From: a virus
Virus record (IMG/VR): IMGVR_UViG_3300032516_000013
Span: 1-64,000 of that record
Length of the DNA stretch: 64,000 nucleotides
Strand: one strand, 5' to 3'
Shown piece after piece: positions 17,829 through 41,302 of the stretch. The notes under the pieces are model-generated. The model searched no databases. It worked only from the letters and a program-made list of their open reading frames with translations, and had not been told where the DNA came from. Both the position numbers and the translations under genes were made by a program. Numbering within the stretch: position 1 is the first letter of the stretch; every line of letters begins with the position of its first letter.

Positions 17829-18689
17829 TTAAACTGTTTCCTCTTCAGATCTATCATCAGGTCGTTCCCGGCCTCTTAATTGCTTATTAATATCATCTAC
17901 CTGAGTAGCAAGAGCATTTTGTTCTTCTTGATATCGCTTTTCGCTGTCCAACATTTGCTGCTCAAGTTCCATTCTTTTTGCCCGAAGTTTGCACAGACTA
18001 CACGTACAGGCGTCATCTGAACCTTCTTCCTCTTTAAGTTTTGATTCTCCACATTTACCAGCTTCCATTCTCTTTAACTTTGTATAATATTCAGGATCTT
18101 CTGCTAAATGATCCATTGCAATTTCTCTTGCCTTGTCAGGATCATCAGTATGTTCCATCTCAACATCAATTCCCATTACTAATTGCTCAGGATCAAAATC
18201 TTCTGGTTTGCTTTTATCTGCTTTACCTCCAAGAATTTTGTCTTCTACACCATAAATAATTTCGGCTTCATGTTCTGGTTTAGGACTTTCCTGAATAATC
18301 TTCTCCACAATATTCGAAAGACACTCTGTGCAAGAAGCTTCTATATTCCTAAATGTTTTGAAGCAATGATTGCAAAGATAAAGATCGCCCTTGCTTTCGT
18401 TCTTAGAGCCATTTATTTTTTGCTTCTTATCCTCTGGAACTTCTTTTATAGCATACTTAGGATTCTTAGGAGTTTTGCTTTTTACTTGCTTGCCGGGCTG
18501 ATTAAAATCATCCTTGTCATGATCTTCTAAATCCATCTCCTCGGGATCTGCTTCTGGCTCCTCGATCGTTTTCATGTTTTGGGGTGTTTTAGTTCTCTTC
18601 GGTTCTGTGTATTCTGATTCTTCATCCTCTCTAATAATCTGCATCAAAGAGCGAAAAGAATCATCAGGTCTAAATTGAAACTCGTTCAT
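17829..18689 (-). CDS. Multi-module head-region protein with Zn ribbon and DUF5661-like domain
   Basis: GGKADK...DFDPEQL.MGIDVEMEHTDD...AREIAMDHLAEDPEYYTKL; CNHC/CTEC; ESK linkers. Confidence 0.7.
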   Translation of the reverse strand: MNEFQFRPDDSFRSLMQIIREDEESEYTEPKRTKTPQNMKTIEEPEADPEEMDLEDHDKDDFNQPGKQVKSKTPKNPKYAIKEVPEDKKQKINGSKNESKGDLYLCNHCFKTFRNIEASCTECLSNIVEKIIQESPKPEHEAEIIYGVEDKILGGKADKSKPEDFDPEQLVMGIDVEMEHTDDPDKAREIAMDHLAEDPEYYTKLKRMEAGKCGESKLKEEEGSDDACTCSLCKLRAKRMELEQQMLDSEKRYQEEQNALATQVDDINKQLRGRERPDDRSEEETV

Positions 18690-19147
18690 TATTTATTCTC
18701 CTGAGCCATATCTACAAGTATAATCTTTTTTCCCGATAAATCTGTCCATCCACCAGCAGCAGATTCTCCATCCCAACTTATTAAATCCTTGACACGATCT
18801 GACGTTAGTTTTCCCCTACTCCACCAAGCAACTTCTATACCTCTACCTTTCTTCACTACCGGACGATAAGCAGCCGAACAATCAGAAAATCTCATGTTCA
18901 ACAATTTCTGAATAGATTCCGCAACAGAATCTTCATCTAAAATAACTTCGAGAATCCCCAGGGCCACTTTATCCTTAGGAAGTATTTTCATTCCTTGTTC
19001 AACAGCAGAATCAAACAACCCGCCTATTCCGGTTGCTGGCATTGTTTTGTTGTGTTCCGCTAATATTCTCAACAGCTTTTTGAAAATTGTTAAATTTTTA
19101 GCAGCCTCAAAAACCCTATGTTTCATTTTGCTCTCCCATGTCATCAA
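18689..19147 (-). CDS. Hypothetical head-region protein
   Basis: Begins MMTWESKMK (linker motif); tightly packed. Confidence 0.55.
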   Translation of the reverse strand: MMTWESKMKHRVFEAAKNLTIFKKLLRILAEHNKTMPATGIGGLFDSAVEQGMKILPKDKVALGILEVILDEDSVAESIQKLLNMRFSDCSAAYRPVVKKGRGIEVAWWSRGKLTSDRVKDLISWDGESAAGGWTDLSGKKIILVDMAQENK

Positions 19148-38931: not shown

Positions 38932-38932
38932 A

Positions 38933-41302
38933 TCATCTCCCTAAAGACTTCTCCCAGTAAGCACCATCTTTAGTTTCTTCTGCTCTTTTGAAACCCATTT
39001 TCTCTAACATAGATTGGGATGCTATATTAAAAGATTCTACATATCCTCTTGCCTTAGTGACCCCATATTTTTCAATAGCATATTTTATTCCAAACTCCAA
39101 TAATTCTGGACCATACCCGCTACCTTTTATCCGAGCATCTAATCTAGTCAAATATACTAATTTATCTTTACTATTTATGTCGAGGGTGGCTTCTACTACT
39201 AAATCATCACTTATATCAAGCCAAGTTTTGGTTTCTTTATTTAGCCGTCCATCAAAAAAAATTCTGACCTTCTTATCCGTAATTGTGATATCTAATCGTC
39301 TGGTTTTATATTCTCTCTTGTCTTCCTGAGTCTCTTCTCCAATTATATATTCAAATAGTTCTTCTTTAACTTTCTTGGTCTCTTTTGATTCTCTGATTTC
39401 TAATTTGGAACCACACTTTGGACAAGTCATAGTTTTAAGAACTTCTGGCTTTGTTTCCTTTACAGTTTTTCTATAACTACGCCAAGGACATTCCTTGCTC
39501 GTACAAACTAACTCAGTCCAATCTCTCCAATATCCTCTAGCTTCTACAGCTTTTGTAATTTTGGATTTATGCATTACTCTTTTATCAAAACCAGCATTAC
39601 CAAGTTCATCCAAATCATAATATGTCTTACCTTCATCAGTTGAGAAGCAAGTAGGACATCTCTTAGATTGCCAATCAGGTTTATGATCCGGAGATCTCGC
39701 ATCATTAACATCCATCCACTCTTCTGGATTATCTGTAAGTTCTGTTAAAGGTTTATACTCTGCCAATTTGTTAAATATGGAAGTTGTTAATCCCGCGGAG
39801 AATCCGGAATGTCCTTGATCAGCAAACTTCTGGATAAGATCCATTACTGCTTCACCAATCATTCCATCGTAGTCAGAATCTTTATCAAATAGTCCTGCTA
39901 ATTGAAGTTCCTTCTTTGCAAAGTCAGTTAGAGATTCATTTATTGATTCCCAAGCTTCTGCTTCTTTTTTACCATAACCATAAGTAAGAATATATTCTAA
40001 TTGATCTATATTTTTTATACTTATTGGAGAACTACTATCAAAGTCTTCTCTATCTAGATCTAGAAACATCTTTTCAATTCCTGAACCATATTCTTTATAC
40101 AGACGAAGAAAAGATTCTATTTGTTTCTGTGTAGGTTTGTTATTTCCTCCAGTTATCCCTATTTCTTTTGCATGCGGGGAAAAGTAACCAGCTATTGCTC
40201 CAGCAAAGTACATATCACTTGGAGCAATATCAATTTTGTTAATAGTAACCAAATAAGCATAGAAAACTGGAATAACTGTTCCATCAGTAAGTAACCAAAA
40301 CTTTAGTTCTCCTCTTTCTTTACCTGAGTAAGTACATGGAACTAACTTTTGACTTTTTCCTTTATAATAGTTCTTTAGCTTTGTTTGAACTTTACCAAGT
40401 GGTAAGAATGCTTCTTGAATGGATTCCCCCATCTTCTTATATTTAGCAATATAGCTCTTTGTCTCTTCAGGAAGTTTAGATCCACCAACACCATTATTCC
40501 CCTTTAGATTACCAACACCCCAATTATAGGCAGCTAATCGATTCTCAAGATTATCCTCAAGATTATAATGCTTTAATAATCGAGGGATTTCTATGTTTAA
40601 ATAATAAGAACCAACCTTCCTATTCTTGTTGGAATCGAATGCTTCTTCCCAAGACCATTGGACATTCATCTTGCGAGTCATCTCTTCCCAAGTAGGTTTT
40701 GTTATCTGAAGAAGACCTCTTGCTCCAGATCTTTTGTTCTCGGCCTTTGGATTATTTGAAGATTCGATTGATGCTATTTTAGATATGTTGATTTGAGGAG
40801 AAGCTTTTGGAGATACAATAGTAAACTTAGGAGTTACTTCTTGTCGAGAAGGGGCAGAGATAGTAGGTGGTTCGCTTTTGTCTTTAGGAACGCTTGTCTG
40901 CATACCTCCTAGGCCTATCAAACTGGCTGCTGCAGTTGTAACTAATGTTTTGCCTAGACCTTCCTCTAATTTGTTTACTCTATCTCTAAATTCTTCCCAA
41001 TGACCAGTAGAACTATAAGATTCAAAATATTCTATATCCCCATCAGGATGAATCCAACCACCTTTATAAGATAATTGTTCATTCAATAATTCATTCTTCT
41101 TCGCCTGGATCTTCATTACAACATTACGAAATGCTTCTGAACTTTCCTTGCACATATCATCAGAAGTGTCAATATTATCTAAGATTTGATAGAGAGCCTT
41201 AGCAACTTGCTCCCAGGTCATATCCTTGCTCTCTTTAAGAGAAATGAGTTTACCTAGAATCATTTGATCTGTGAAAAAAGAATTGGCTTCGATAAAATCC
41301 AT
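38933..41302 (-). CDS. Polyprotein: lytic transglycosylase (SLT) + KFWLLTDG module + unknown module + Zn ribbon + GNAT acetyltransferase
   Basis: SLT motifs IESS, GARGLLQI, LAAYNWG, P.ET..Y. GNAT motifs KGSGYG and N.AS..MLEKMGF. Linkers ESIQE, ESINE, ESKE. Confidence 0.8.
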   Translation of the reverse strand: MDFIEANSFFTDQMILGKLISLKESKDMTWEQVAKALYQILDNIDTSDDMCKESSEAFRNVVMKIQAKKNELLNEQLSYKGGWIHPDGDIEYFESYSSTGHWEEFRDRVNKLEEGLGKTLVTTAAASLIGLGGMQTSVPKDKSEPPTISAPSRQEVTPKFTIVSPKASPQINISKIASIESSNNPKAENKRSGARGLLQITKPTWEEMTRKMNVQWSWEEAFDSNKNRKVGSYYLNIEIPRLLKHYNLEDNLENRLAAYNWGVGNLKGNNGVGGSKLPEETKSYIAKYKKMGESIQEAFLPLGKVQTKLKNYYKGKSQKLVPCTYSGKERGELKFWLLTDGTVIPVFYAYLVTINKIDIAPSDMYFAGAIAGYFSPHAKEIGITGGNNKPTQKQIESFLRLYKEYGSGIEKMFLDLDREDFDSSSPISIKNIDQLEYILTYGYGKKEAEAWESINESLTDFAKKELQLAGLFDKDSDYDGMIGEAVMDLIQKFADQGHSGFSAGLTTSIFNKLAEYKPLTELTDNPEEWMDVNDARSPDHKPDWQSKRCPTCFSTDEGKTYYDLDELGNAGFDKRVMHKSKITKAVEARGYWRDWTELVCTSKECPWRSYRKTVKETKPEVLKTMTCPKCGSKLEIRESKETKKVKEELFEYIIGEETQEDKREYKTRRLDITITDKKVRIFFDGRLNKETKTWLDISDDLVVEATLDINSKDKLVYLTRLDARIKGSGYGPELLEFGIKYAIEKYGVTKARGYVESFNIASQSMLEKMGFKRAEETKDGAYWEKSLGR

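Follow-up and report, generated by a model that had tools for sequence, protein, structure and literature searches.

Modular head-gene proteins of an uncultured myophage share a recurring ESK-type linker, a candidate prohead protease site

Five head-module genes of an uncultured myophage encode chains of small modules joined by a recurring linker, with the consensus E-S-K-[VILMT]-x-E or the shorter E-S-I-x-E at junctions. We lean towards the reading that this linker is a cleavage site of the S77 prohead protease, at which chains packaged in the prohead would be cut into modules and delivered to the host. Swappable, linker-joined modules suggest a plug-in way to pack helper proteins.

The phage has a T4-type head, with a gp23-like major capsid protein (MCP), a gp20-like portal and an S77 prohead protease. 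Against any GenBank phage, its MCP and protease reach ≤34% identity. In the window (the whole stretch analysed, 64,000 nucleotides), the motif counts cover 65 minus-strand ORFs (≥100 aa) out of 82 listed, leaving aside 16 plus-strand ORFs, each overlapping minus-strand genes, and the 5'-open ORF 63695-64000. The five head-module ORFs (1173, 912, 1010, 789 and 286 aa; 4170 aa in total) were compared with the other 60 (14,564 aa).

Table 1 Head-module ORFs, linkers, domains and neighbouring genes in the window.
Feature	Positions	Strand	Remarks
286 aa ORF	17829..18689	-	Acidic N-terminus, Zn ribbon, DUF5661, ESKLKE, C-terminal tail
ESKLKE (215-220)	18030..18047	-	Immediately after DUF5661
DUF5661 module (166-209)	18063..18194	-	PF18905 E 2.8e-14
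1010 aa ORF	20009..23041	-	SWIM-like protein split by intein, then three more modules
ESKKKVKK (1003-1010)	20012..20035	-	C-terminal end; position equivalent to ESINE of 789 aa ORF
Module X copy (862-1002)	20036..20458	-	
ESIQE (857-861)	20459..20473	-	Immediately precedes module X
ESIEE (773-777)	20711..20725	-	
ESIQE (580-584)	21290..21304	-	6/6 SWIM-like homologue matches end at 561-586
Intein with HNH domain (126-481)	21599..22666	-	Inside C-x-C...C-x-H motif; PF14890 E 3.1e-16
MCP, gp23 family	25691..27199	-	PF07068 E 1e-44
NSHLFE, putative maturation site (MCP 70-75)	26975..26992	-	Followed by ATTED; [NGR][STQ][HRK][LIV]FE|[AT]T conserved in 7/7 MCPs
912 aa ORF	27230..29968	-	S77 prohead protease domain, ~450 aa of small modules, conserved helical C-terminal domain
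C-terminal domain (706-912)	27233..27853	-	Matched in 6/6 related protease ORFs, 29-40% identity
ETKVNE (655-660)	27989..28006	-	Aligns with ESKVDE of L004
ESKTNE (586-591)	28196..28213	-	NESKTNER aligns with NESKVDER of L004
ESKVNE (543-548)	28325..28342	-	
ESQMKE (487-492)	28493..28510	-	
ESELKE (415-420)	28709..28726	-	
ESKITE (346-351)	28916..28933	-	Aligns with ESKIAE of L004 amid diverged flanks
ESKNVKESVQE (253-263)	29180..29212	-	First linker after protease domain
S77 (T4 gp21-like) protease domain (35-208)	29345..29866	-	PF03420 E 2.4e-10; phrog_207 E 3e-33; alignment to 5jbl_A
1173 aa polyprotein	29997..33518	-	~12-14 modules; weak Zn ribbon at 13-66 is sole family match
ESQKILE (1005-1011)	30486..30506	-	Edge of low-pLDDT segments 994-1006; 53 HSP starts in 1011-1020
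ESKTNE (931-936)	30711..30728	-	Within low-pLDDT segment 927-941
ESKTNE (853-858)	30945..30962	-	Within low-pLDDT segment 846-872
EGKLQE (733-738)	31305..31322	-	
ESKMNE (663-668)	31515..31532	-	Within low-pLDDT segment 663-680; 25 HSP ends in 651-670
ESKIQTNE (446-453)	32160..32183	-	Low-pLDDT segment 446-452; 20 HSP starts in 441-460
ESKMKE (377-382)	32373..32390	-	Within low-pLDDT segment 374-383
ESKKVQE (307-313)	32580..32600	-	Within low-pLDDT segment 285-345
ENKINE (143-148)	33075..33092	-	Edge of low-pLDDT segment 147-171
ESKLIE (68-73)	33300..33317	-	
DSKLQE (20-25)	33444..33461	-	
Trypsin-like peptidase	37422..38318	-	N-terminal hydrophobic helix; PF13365 (Trypsin_2) E 8.4e-18
73 aa ORF	38710..38931	-	Starts MFEELFEHIIKED; resembles ELFEYIIGEE after last linker of 789 aa ORF
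789 aa ORF	38933..41302	-	N-terminal domain, SLT, module X, Tad3, Zn ribbon, GNAT
GNAT acetyltransferase motif region (723-772)	38987..39136	-	PF13302 23.7 bits, below cut-off 25.4; phrog_1249 E 1.2e-5
ESKETKKVKE (638-647)	39362..39391	-	Between Zn ribbon and GNAT
Tad3 (type I Thoeris inhibitor) domain (457-563)	39614..39934	-	PF25185 117.9 bits (cut-off 27); PDB 9b7d_B E 3.3e-5
ESINE (452-456)	39935..39949	-	Immediately precedes Tad3 match
Module X copy (298-451)	39950..40411	-	38.6% identity to 1010 aa ORF residues 849-1004
ESIQE (293-297)	40412..40426	-	Between SLT and module X
SLT lytic transglycosylase domain (173-269)	40496..40786	-	PF01464 E 4.2e-13
Residue numbers in parentheses refer to the ORF within whose positions the feature lies.

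By computation, the motif is enriched in the five ORFs. The regular expression E[ST]K?[LIVMT].E matched 19 times in them and twice in the other 60. When residues were shuffled within each ORF with composition kept (5000 shuffles each), the matches in the 1173 aa (8; shuffle mean 0.79), 912 aa (5; 0.50) and 1010 aa (3; 0.26) ORFs were reached in 0, 1 and 15 shuffles, respectively, which excludes composition for these three; the two matches in the 789 aa ORF (0.27) were reached in 141 shuffles, and the single match in the 286 aa ORF (0.15), reached in 698, is not significant alone. An unbiased tripeptide scan of the five ORFs found ESK 18 times against 3.39 expected, placing it top among tripeptides seen >5 times, compared with 4 against 4.51 in the other 60; for [ST][KRH][LIVMT].E the counts were 15 against 2.3 expected and 6 against 4.5. 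Every motif instance given in the preliminary description is present in the translations, and its statement that tail and metabolic genes lack the motif is nearly right, the exceptions being an M42 peptidase and ORF 56175-56987, with one match each, and ORF 60443-61171, with a C-terminal ESKNE. The remainder of the 90,332-bp contig holds three matches to the regular expression and one to ES[KI]..E. Some ESK tripeptides lack a following h-x-E (at 722, and at 707 in the protease ORF).

The motif labels the same gene classes in a related contig and in diverged homologues. In the related 127,878-bp contig G001, ES[KI].{1,4}E occurs 13 times in four head ORFs (3250 aa), compared with three times across the 155 remaining main-strand ORFs (34,336 aa). 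Among 64 homologues of ≥400 aa, taken from clusters at 50% identity, ESK occurs 184 times; shuffled sequences gave 37.0, with no more than 55 in any of 300 shuffles, and ESKVNE is the commonest form of the motif. Where the protease ORF is aligned with its relative from L004 (alignment A1), motif positions are invariant while flanking sequence diverges; together with a variable Ser codon (TCT, TCA, TCC), this points to selection on the motif peptide.

The S77 enzymes of known specificity cleave after Glu, at L/I-X-E in T4, S/A-X-E in phiKZ and A-X-E in SPN3US, as given in passages of PMC9026906 and PMC10052503. As previously described, the MCP contains LFE|A (residues 73-76), and the enclosing NSHLFE is its only [ST][KRH][LIVMT].E match, located just before the start of gp23 homology. 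At this expected maturation position, S-[HKR]-h-F-E has the same shape as the S-K-h-x-E linker; the linker thus ends in the h-x-E shape cut by S77 proteases and matches the conserved MCP site. In the protease itself, His77 and Ser132 are invariant in 7/7 relatives (alignment A6). All six related protease ORFs (621-1545 aa) conserve both terminal domains, the protease at the N-terminus and the C-terminal one, which may have a scaffold-like role, around a variable middle.

Domains predicted with AF2, homology blocks and stand-alone homologues back the description of these proteins as chains of small modules, many of 43-90 residues. The AF2 models covered two parts of the 1173 aa ORF (residues 840-1173 and 130-680), with eight motif sites in all. 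In agreement with the inter-domain position proposed earlier, six of the eight sites lie within segments of pLDDT <50, two lie at their edges and none lies within a confident domain. Segments of this kind account for 131/334 and 161/551 of the modelled residues, respectively, and low pLDDT goes along with charged sequence of low complexity and with thin alignments, so this result is partly expected for an E/S/K-rich motif; low-confidence linkers at 544-575 and 1089-1153 carry no motif. In the same ORF, the boundaries of homology matches cluster at 441-460, 651-670 and 1011-1020. Some modules occur alone elsewhere: a 72 aa protein corresponds to residues 862-929, and many proteins of 72-100 aa correspond to residues 1011-1079.

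Module order across related genomes, compared computationally, reveals exchange between ORFs and between genomes. Core structural genes are collinear with those of relatives at 45-75% identity; the polyproteins share patches only. The protease ORFs of L002 and L004 contain counterparts of residues 719-836 of the 1173 aa ORF; counterparts of protease ORF residues 253-351 are found in other ORFs of L001, L002, L004 and L006; and DUF5661, in the 286 aa ORF here, lies within the large polyprotein in L001 and L004. The modules had been called unrelated, which is not fully right, as module X (~150 aa) has one copy in the 1010 aa ORF and another in the 789 aa ORF (Table 1). The Pfam domains of the 789 and 286 aa ORFs adjoin motifs. 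The Tad3 module recurs in eight other multi-module proteins (451-931 aa), and h-x-E directly precedes it here (ESINE) and in two of the five homologues listed (ELNE, TIKE), with none at that position in the other three.

Family identities computed for the modules bear on their suggested role as effectors, which holds for the 789 aa ORF only (SLT, Tad3, GNAT); most modules of the five ORFs have no family or fold match, so the label is unproven for them. We liken the chains to T4 internal proteins and polyvalent proteins. Predicted fragments of 5-10 kDa are in the size range of T4 IPI (~8 kDa), which, in the portion of PMC9026906 concerned, is a compact folded domain that is retained and then ejected. 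Many predicted fragments are acidic, in contrast to the basic T4 internal proteins, and could simply be expelled; long acidic spacers include residues 149-313 (net -39) and 739-858 (net -19) of the 1173 aa ORF.

Of the plug-and-play system envisaged in the preliminary description, the modules, linker position, exchange, h-x-E shape and presence of an S77 protease in one chain stand, and from these we infer cleavage, packaging and delivery. In the five gene products, small modules that fold independently are strung together like beads. The linker would be the extended site recognised by the S77 protease that the phage itself encodes, with cleavage after the last Glu, comparable to T4 gp21 cleavage after L/I-x-E. 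Entry of the chains into the prohead would follow from the obligatory core components on which they are built: the protease domain and the conserved helical C-terminal domain in the 912 aa ORF, and core modules, likewise conserved, in the 1173 aa ORF. As the head matures, the protease would cleave the MCP at S-H-L-F-E|A and divide the chains into their individual domains. The acidic spacers would probably be lost from the head, and the compact modules would be retained alongside the DNA and ejected with it into the host, like T4 IPI* and Alt; such modules would include the SLT transglycosylase, Tad3 Thoeris inhibitor and acetyltransferase of the 789 aa ORF. With the same linker framing every module, no new packaging signal would be needed when modules are moved, duplicated or added across chains and genomes.

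The chains might instead be cut at the motif by the prohead protease yet serve only as an elaborate, evolvable scaffold or core filler, the fragments leaving before DNA packaging and none being delivered, as with most T4 gp22 fragments; core fragments mostly leave the T4 head, according to the relevant part of PMC9026906. The small size and acidity of many predicted fragments and spacers and the lack of a recognisable effector family for most modules would suit such filler. Of the 150 best hits for the 1173 aa ORF, 50 and 34 include its conserved modules 181-262 and 581-660, respectively, as core assembly parts would be expected to do. We nevertheless consider this unlikely, as SLT, Tad3 and GNAT would be senseless as discarded filler, rapid module turnover among close relatives with collinear core genes resembles arms-race cargo rather than scaffold, and T4 does retain and eject a compact domain, IPI.

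We attach a similarly low probability to the motif being an uncut, conserved inter-domain linker, whether a core-binding or targeting signal, a Ser modification site or a recombination joint. The motif Ser codons are TCN in 17/17 cases, against 26% AGY in the background, and the first Glu codon is GAA in 17/18, hinting at shared descent of the joints; relatives also carry tandem copies (ESKNESKVQE, ESKVDESKVEE). The all-TCN codons fit spread by duplication or recombination as well as selection, but the third codon position is variable, which leaves no fixed DNA sequence. A part of PMC9026906 places both targeting and processing determinants in the 10-residue T4 leader. Yet the motif has an aliphatic-x-Glu ending, the shape that S77 proteases are known to cleave, is kept across homologues of <50% identity, and is matched by the MCP site, which occupies the canonical maturation position; a recombination joint serves no purpose there.

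Nearby, at 37422-38318, a second conserved protease is encoded, a membrane-anchored trypsin-like peptidase that had not been considered earlier; it is matched in three of five related records, and the two without a match are fragments estimated to be 31-34% complete. The chymotrypsin fold includes Glu-specific members. This Trypsin_2 protein, or else a host enzyme, might cut the motif. That seems very improbable, given that the motif directly follows the S77 domain within the same chain, that the MCP site shares its shape, that a membrane anchor suggests an envelope location and not the prohead interior, and that Glu specificity with a P3 preference is documented for the S77 family in part of PMC9026906. 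As a mere product of E/K/S-rich composition (E 9.3-15.8% and K 10.5-12.2% in the five ORFs against 7.0% and 6.8% in the remaining ORFs), the motif is next to impossible to explain, this origin being refuted by the residue shuffles, the tripeptide scan and the 64-homologue count.

The intein of the 1010 aa ORF is absent from relatives. ESQKILE of the 1173 aa ORF is a degenerate variant of the motif that was missing from the earlier list.

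The window, with a G+C content of ~36%, starts a single virus contig of 90,332 bp and covers its first 64 kb; every long ORF is encoded on the minus strand. Family scans gave the gene layout listed in the table. The major capsid protein (MCP) is <30% identical and the protease domain ≤34% identical to any GenBank phage, so this is a phage without a cultured close relative; MCP identity to eight related IMG/VR records (L001–L008) is 48–74%.

Features of the window, from higher to lower coordinates
Feature	Coordinates	Strand	Remarks
242 aa ORF	60443-61171		overlaps terminase gene start
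Large terminase	58474-60492	(-)	weak match
Pentapeptide-repeat-like protein	54025-54498
Pentapeptide-repeat-like protein	53272-53862
Portal, T4-type	45645-48125	(-)	family scan
HNH endonuclease	42188-42901		phrog_1271, E 1.4e-15
789 aa ORF	38933-41302	(-)	after portal; then run of small ORFs
ELFEYIIGEE	39330-39362		in 789 aa ORF
73 aa ORF	38710-38931		directly after 789 aa ORF
Trypsin-like peptidase	37422-38318		PF13365, E 8.4e-18
GIY-YIG homing endonuclease	33870-34358		phrog_314, E 1.9e-31
1173 aa ORF	29997-33518	(-)	after run of small ORFs
Module 937-993	30540-30710		in 1173 aa ORF
912 aa ORF, S77 prohead protease domain	27230-29968	(-)	after 1173 aa ORF
SRILE	29330-29344		912 aa ORF, residues 209-213
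MCP, gp23 family	25691-27199	(-)	after 912 aa ORF
M42 glutamyl-aminopeptidase-family gene	23043-24134	(-)	PF05343, E 4.9e-53; between capsid gene and 1010 aa ORF
1010 aa ORF	20009-23041	(-)	after M42 gene; then 307, 152 and 286 aa ORFs
286 aa ORF	17829-18689	(-)
Tail sheath, with tail genes	12861-14483 (sheath)	(-)	last in layout

Five ORFs of the head region (1173, 912, 1010, 789 and 286 aa) carry a recurring linker, ESK-h-x-E or ESI-x-E, and every instance named in the preliminary description was found in the ORF translations. We counted its regular expression, E[ST]K?[LIVMT].E, in 65 minus-strand ORFs no shorter than 100 aa, which are what remains of 82 once 16 plus-strand ORFs that overlap others and one ORF open at its 5' end are set aside; there were 19 matches in the five ORFs (4170 aa) versus 2 in the other 60 (14,564 aa). 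That these counts lie beyond chance held for the 1173, 912 and 1010 aa ORFs, reached in 0, 1 and 15 of 5000 composition-matched shuffles, respectively, and failed for the 286 aa ORF taken alone (698/5000). For the 789 aa ORF, 141 of 5000 residue shuffles that kept composition reached the observed count. In an unbiased tripeptide scan, ESK was the top-enriched recurrent tripeptide of the five ORFs (18 seen versus 3.39 expected) and stood at expectation outside them (4 versus 4.51). The other 26 kb of the contig hold three matches to the regular expression and one to ES[KI]..E. Beyond the five ORFs, the only ES[KI]..E in the window lies at the C-terminus (...GNESKNE) of the 242 aa ORF, whose counterpart in the related 127,878-bp contig G001 is 47% identical. 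Tripeptide statistics of the non-head ORFs are dominated by the ANL, GAN and YGA repeats of the two small pentapeptide-repeat-like proteins.

The linker extends beyond this genome. Large ORFs beside the MCP in relatives bear ESKV[DNQ]E, ESKIAE and ESIQE, and across G001 four head ORFs (3250 aa) contain 13 copies of the pattern ES[KI].{1,4}E, versus 3 copies in 155 other main-strand ORFs (34,336 aa). When the 1173 aa ORF was compared, without a profile, with 1.84 billion cluster representatives, 457 proteins matched at E ≤0.001; in the 64 homologues of at least 400 aa among the best 150 of these, ESK occurs 184 times, where shuffles give 37.0 (at most 55 in any of 300), and ES[KI].{1,4}E 150 times versus 25.4. 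The logo at 182 ESK sites reads [P/A]-[K/N]-E-S-K-[V/I/T]-[N/D]-E, the commonest forms being ESKVNE (24 sites) and ESKTNE (10), and motif-to-motif spacing peaks at 60–80 residues (25 of 102 gaps). Where the 912 aa ORF is aligned with its L004 counterpart, motifs are kept and flanks have diverged.

Two simple causes of the motif are ruled out: E/K/S composition by the residue shuffles of window ORFs and homologues, and a fixed DNA repeat by variation at third codon positions. The motif serine is encoded by TCT, TCA or TCC, so it is the peptide that is constrained. All 17 serine codons of ES[KI]..E linkers in the five ORFs are TCN and none is AGY, against a background of 26% AGY for serine in the same ORFs, which suggests linkers of shared descent or constrained against a two-step codon change and is also compatible with spread of the linker by duplication.

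The motif falls between domains rather than within them. Full-length alignments of the 1173 aa ORF (149 and 124 homologues) misplaced small stand-alone homologues and were replaced by two fragment alignments, from which residues 840–1173 and 130–680 were folded with AF2. In the former model (76 rows, mean pLDDT 69.5), confident domains at ~876–926, 942–993 and 1007–1088 are separated by segments with pLDDT <50 (846–872, 927–941, 994–1002 and 1004–1006); both ESKTNE sites (853–858, 931–936) lie within such segments and ESQKILE (1005–1011) at a segment edge. In the latter (62 rows, mean pLDDT 71.9), which is low at 147–171, 285–345, 368–372, 374–383, 446–452, 544–575 and 663–680, ESKKVQE, ESKMKE, ESKIQTNE and ESKMNE lie within low segments and ENKINE at an edge. 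The expectation that motifs occupy disordered gaps was thus borne out for these parts of the 1173 aa ORF, with six of eight sites in low segments, two at edges and none in a confident domain, where low segments make up 39% of the 840–1173 model and 29% of the 130–680 model, and low pLDDT is to be expected in part where sequence is charged and its alignment thin. The models cover one of the five ORFs, and in it the sites other than those at 20–25, 68–73 and 733–738. A line of evidence independent of AF2 comes from homology matches, whose starts and ends (among the best 150 of 457 proteins) cluster at motifs, at 441–460, 651–670 and 1011–1020. Likewise, in the 789 aa ORF, ESIQE lies 24 residues past the SLT match and ESINE ends one residue ahead of the Tad3 match; DUF5661 of the 286 aa ORF is followed by ESKLKE.

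Modules framed in this way are autonomous and mobile. Residues 862–929 of the 1173 aa ORF, exactly between two ESKTNE sites, match residues 4–71 of a 72 aa protein, and residues 1011–1079 match many proteins of 72–100 aa; this 'TWFERDR' domain has a wide distribution that extends, without the motif, beyond this clade. DUF5661 is found in the 286 aa ORF here and in a large polyprotein of L001 and L004, residues 253–351 of the 912 aa ORF recur in other ORFs of L001, L002, L004 and L006, and the protease ORFs of L002 and L004 contain residues 719–836 of the 1173 aa ORF, with residues 1108–1173 in that of L003. The 1010 and 789 aa ORFs share a module of ~150 residues (38.6% identity), preceded by ESIQE in both copies and followed by AWESINE in one ORF and by AWESK and a stop codon in the other. 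In four relatives, the SWIM-like part of the 1010 aa ORF exists as a protein in its own right, of 214–348 aa, and SWIM-like matches in all six relatives stop at 561–586, the position of ESIQE. In comparison with G001, structural genes are collinear and 45–75% identical over their full length, and the polyproteins share patches only. G001 has no counterpart of the 789 aa ORF or of the M42 gene, which is present in L002 and L003 (60–65% identity). A search for related loci in viral contigs found no relative of the 789 aa ORF, and five related records match it in single modules only.

The suggestion that the modules are effectors stands for the 789 aa ORF alone, which has recognisable functions (SLT, Tad3 and GNAT-like); the other modules have no confident family or fold. 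SLT is matched at E 4.2e-13, and the GNAT-like end is below Pfam's cut-off. The Tad3 match (PF25185) spans residues 457–563 and profile positions 2–102 of 119, with 117.9 bits against a cut-off of 27; the module also matches PDB entry 9b7d_B at E 3.3e-5 (residues 484–571 against 33–117 of 194). Tad3, an inhibitor of type I Thoeris, is described as binding ThsB and blocking signal synthesis (PMC13728456). This module recurs in eight other proteins of 451–931 aa, six of which share the N-terminal 60–90 residues of the 789 aa ORF. An h-x-E stands immediately before Tad3 in this ORF (ESINE) and in two of five homologues (ELNE, TIKE), and in none of the other three.

For the 1173 aa ORF, Foldseek gave no match at E ≤0.001 for either model in the PDB, nor for the 130–680 model in BFVD, and residues 1007–1088 had no usable match in the protein atlas. 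Stand-alone homologues of modules had no match in PHROGs or Pfam. The best VIA-align match of the 840–1173 model was a 73-residue portal-vertex chain of P74-26 (9oac_Ca, Z 7.2), followed by a phicrAss001 vertex chain (7qoh_g, Z 5.9) and T7 Gp2 (Z 5.2), all in the tool's common range. These weak resemblances fall on a beta-beta-alpha-beta module at residues 937–993, between ESKTNE and ESQKILE, which also weakly resembles YkzG/epsilon (Foldseek E 0.045), like T7 Gp2 an RNA-polymerase binder.

The linker has the shape of a prohead protease site. An S77 domain opens the 912 aa ORF (PF03420, 40.7 bits against a cut-off of 27; phrog_207, E 3e-33), and its His77 and Ser132, invariant in seven of seven sequences, both align with Ala positions of the T4 gp21 structure 5jbl_A, which we take to be an inactive mutant. 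S77 proteases of known specificity are reported to cleave after Glu, at L/I-X-E in T4, S/A-X-E in phiKZ and A-X-E in SPN3US, the last with Ser favoured at P1' (PMC9026906, PMC10052503); the linker terminates in [VILMT]-x-E. The capsid protein itself provides a comparison. The LFE/A noticed earlier in the MCP (PF07068, E 1e-44, match from residue 88) recurs as [LIV]FE/[AT]TTED at residues 73–80 in all seven MCPs, a putative maturation site. The only [ST][KRH][LIVMT].E in the MCP (residues 71–75) lies just upstream of the gp23 homology, and the extended site S/T-basic-aliphatic-F-E/[AT]TTED is conserved in the seven MCPs, one of them with Q at P5. The same pattern occurs 15 times versus 2.3 expected in the five ORFs and 6 versus 4.5 elsewhere. 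A second cut site may lie at the first Glu of E-S-K. The protease domain ends with SRILE, of which Glu213 is, like Phe207, invariant in seven of seven sequences; the protease may cleave its own C-terminal end here, ahead of the first ESK linker. A complex prediction for the protease domain (1–235) with residues 840–944 of the 1173 aa ORF scored 0.00, which is no answer and weighs neither way.

Fusion to the protease would offer a route into the head. Both ends of the protease ORF are kept in six of six relatives, the protease domain at the N-terminus and a domain of ~200 residues at the C-terminus; the middle varies, and with it the total length, from 621 to 1545 aa. The T4 protease is described as a component of the prohead core (PMC9026906), and from the fusion to the protease and the conserved C-terminal domain we infer that the parts held between these ends enter the prohead. 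Predicted fragments are mostly 5–25 kDa, many of them 5–10 kDa; T4 IPI is given as ~8 kDa (PMC9026906).

Tentatively, as something possible rather than probable, we propose that a widespread uncultured clade with T4-type capsids makes its virion cargo as true polyproteins, cut by the S77 protease at E-S-K-h-x-E, with the linker as a universal joint and the capsid as a delivery device. Up to a dozen small autonomous domains would be strung like beads within obligatory prohead components, one of them a protease–cargo–scaffold fusion, and a dedicated six-residue S77 site, E-S-K-h-x-E, would frame each bead. Any small gene recombined into the chain through the shared linker would be packaged and injected at once, and the cargo would include ready-made anti-defence proteins such as Tad3. 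Alternatively, the chains may be scaffold that is cut and then expelled, with nothing delivered; many predicted fragments are acidic, which is compatible with expulsion as well as retention. The motif may also be an uncut linker serving targeting or recombination. Finally, cutting may be due to the conserved, membrane-anchored trypsin-like peptidase in the head module, which has an N-terminal hydrophobic helix and is matched in three of five related records. That the M42 aminopeptidase trims the termini left by a Glu-specific protease is pure speculation.

The proposed polyprotein system resembles T4 in its S77 protease and gp23-type capsid protein, and in the aliphatic-x-Glu shape of the predicted site (PMC9026906). 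T4 packs small proteins, including an anti-restriction factor, into the core, where by the same account they are freed by the protease and later ejected with the DNA (PMC9026906); its capsid-targeted internal proteins are IPI, IPII, IPIII and Alt, its protease is gp21, and its capsid targeting sequence has 10 residues. In T4, however, every cargo protein has a gene and an N-terminal leader to itself, and protease (~200 aa) and scaffold are likewise encoded separately. Here, up to a dozen modules follow one another in a chain, cargo lies between the protease and the C-terminal domain, and the site reaches further upstream, to E-S-K. Cleavage has been proven for T4; here we infer it.

Polyvalent proteins, as defined by Iyer, Burroughs, Anand, de Souza and Aravind in 2017, are described as having 2–15 domains, lying among virion genes, often bearing lysozyme-type domains and being extensively shuffled, with delivery alongside the DNA against host defences proposed (PMC5512222). 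The chains here are alike in being multi-domain, in their virion gene context and in their shuffled domains. The polyvalent class is delimited by the MuF, MPTase, ART and LPD families, with processing proposed by an internal zincin-like MPTase (PMC5512222); by Pfam, MuF, zincin-like MPTase, ART and LPD are absent from the five window chains (E ≤0.01) and from ten related chains (E ≤0.001), and SLT is the only domain in common. Domains here are also much smaller, and the prohead protease would process the chains in trans, at a single recurring linker.

Head proteolysis is also known from the giant phages phiKZ (gp175), 201phi2-1 and SPN3US (gp245), whose diverged gp21 homologues, by published accounts, recognise a short motif and cut after Glu in many head and ejection proteins, with several cut sites inside long propeptides. 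The reported SPN3US preference for Ser at P1' recalls the E/S of E-S-K. At P3 they have a small residue (S, A or G), not an aliphatic one as in the site here, and their substrates are single proteins with N-terminal propeptides rather than chains of unrelated modules. Eukaryotic RNA viruses also make polyproteins in which units share one chain, a site is repeated and the viral protease is part of the chain (for example, picornavirus 3C). This is an analogy only, between unrelated viruses, proteases and purposes: the RNA virus polyprotein solves a single-ORF problem, and the chains here would solve packaging.

Searches of open-access papers and bioRxiv found no description of such chains in phages and no paper with ESKVNE, ESKTNE or ESKVDE; the cleavage tables in SPN3US and phiKZ supplements could hold longer motifs. 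In that literature, two features appear to be new: a single extended site of protease type that frames many small modules in one chain, and the placing of cargo inside the protease–scaffold chain. If the proposal is true, a changeable set of counter-defence and take-over proteins enters the cell with the DNA, before phage gene expression, and each protein costs the phage one short linker, where each gene would otherwise need its own packaging signal. Tad3, a known Thoeris inhibitor, would be among the injected proteins, which matters for the speed at which signalling defences can be blocked, and the capsid would be a natural programmable protein-delivery device. E-S-K-h-x-E provides a testable extended specificity for a new branch of gp21/assemblin proteases and a simple rule for finding candidate virion cargo in metagenomic phage genomes; the motif delimits dozens of small domains without assigned function, among which to look for new anti-defence proteins with good prospects. 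In design, the chains are similar to the artificial CTS fusions described for loading foreign proteins into T4 capsids (PMC9026906), and a natural multi-cargo version may be useful for engineering.

Head-region ORFs here may also tend to start with short leaders that end in h-x-E, of the kind that serves as the capsid targeting sequence in T4: by a crude post hoc pattern applied to predicted starts, [LIVMF].E occurs in the first 14 residues of 16 of 22 head-region ORFs versus 12 of 44 others (Fisher p 6e-4). The 73 aa ORF begins MFEELFEHIIKED, which resembles the ELFEYIIGEE that comes after an ESKETKKVKE linker, ahead of the GNAT module of the 789 aa ORF; the likeness hints that a leader or module start may be internal or N-terminal.

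Head genes also hold two inteins. One occupies residues 86–219 of the portal (PF14890, E 2.9e-14), and the G001 portal has none. The other, at residues 126–481 of the 1010 aa ORF, carries an HNH domain and splits the SWIM-like zinc-finger motif between C-x-C and C-x-H; in intein-free relatives the SWIM match is weak (E ~1e-3, below the cut-off). Two free-standing endonucleases, of the GIY-YIG homing and HNH types, also lie amid the head genes.
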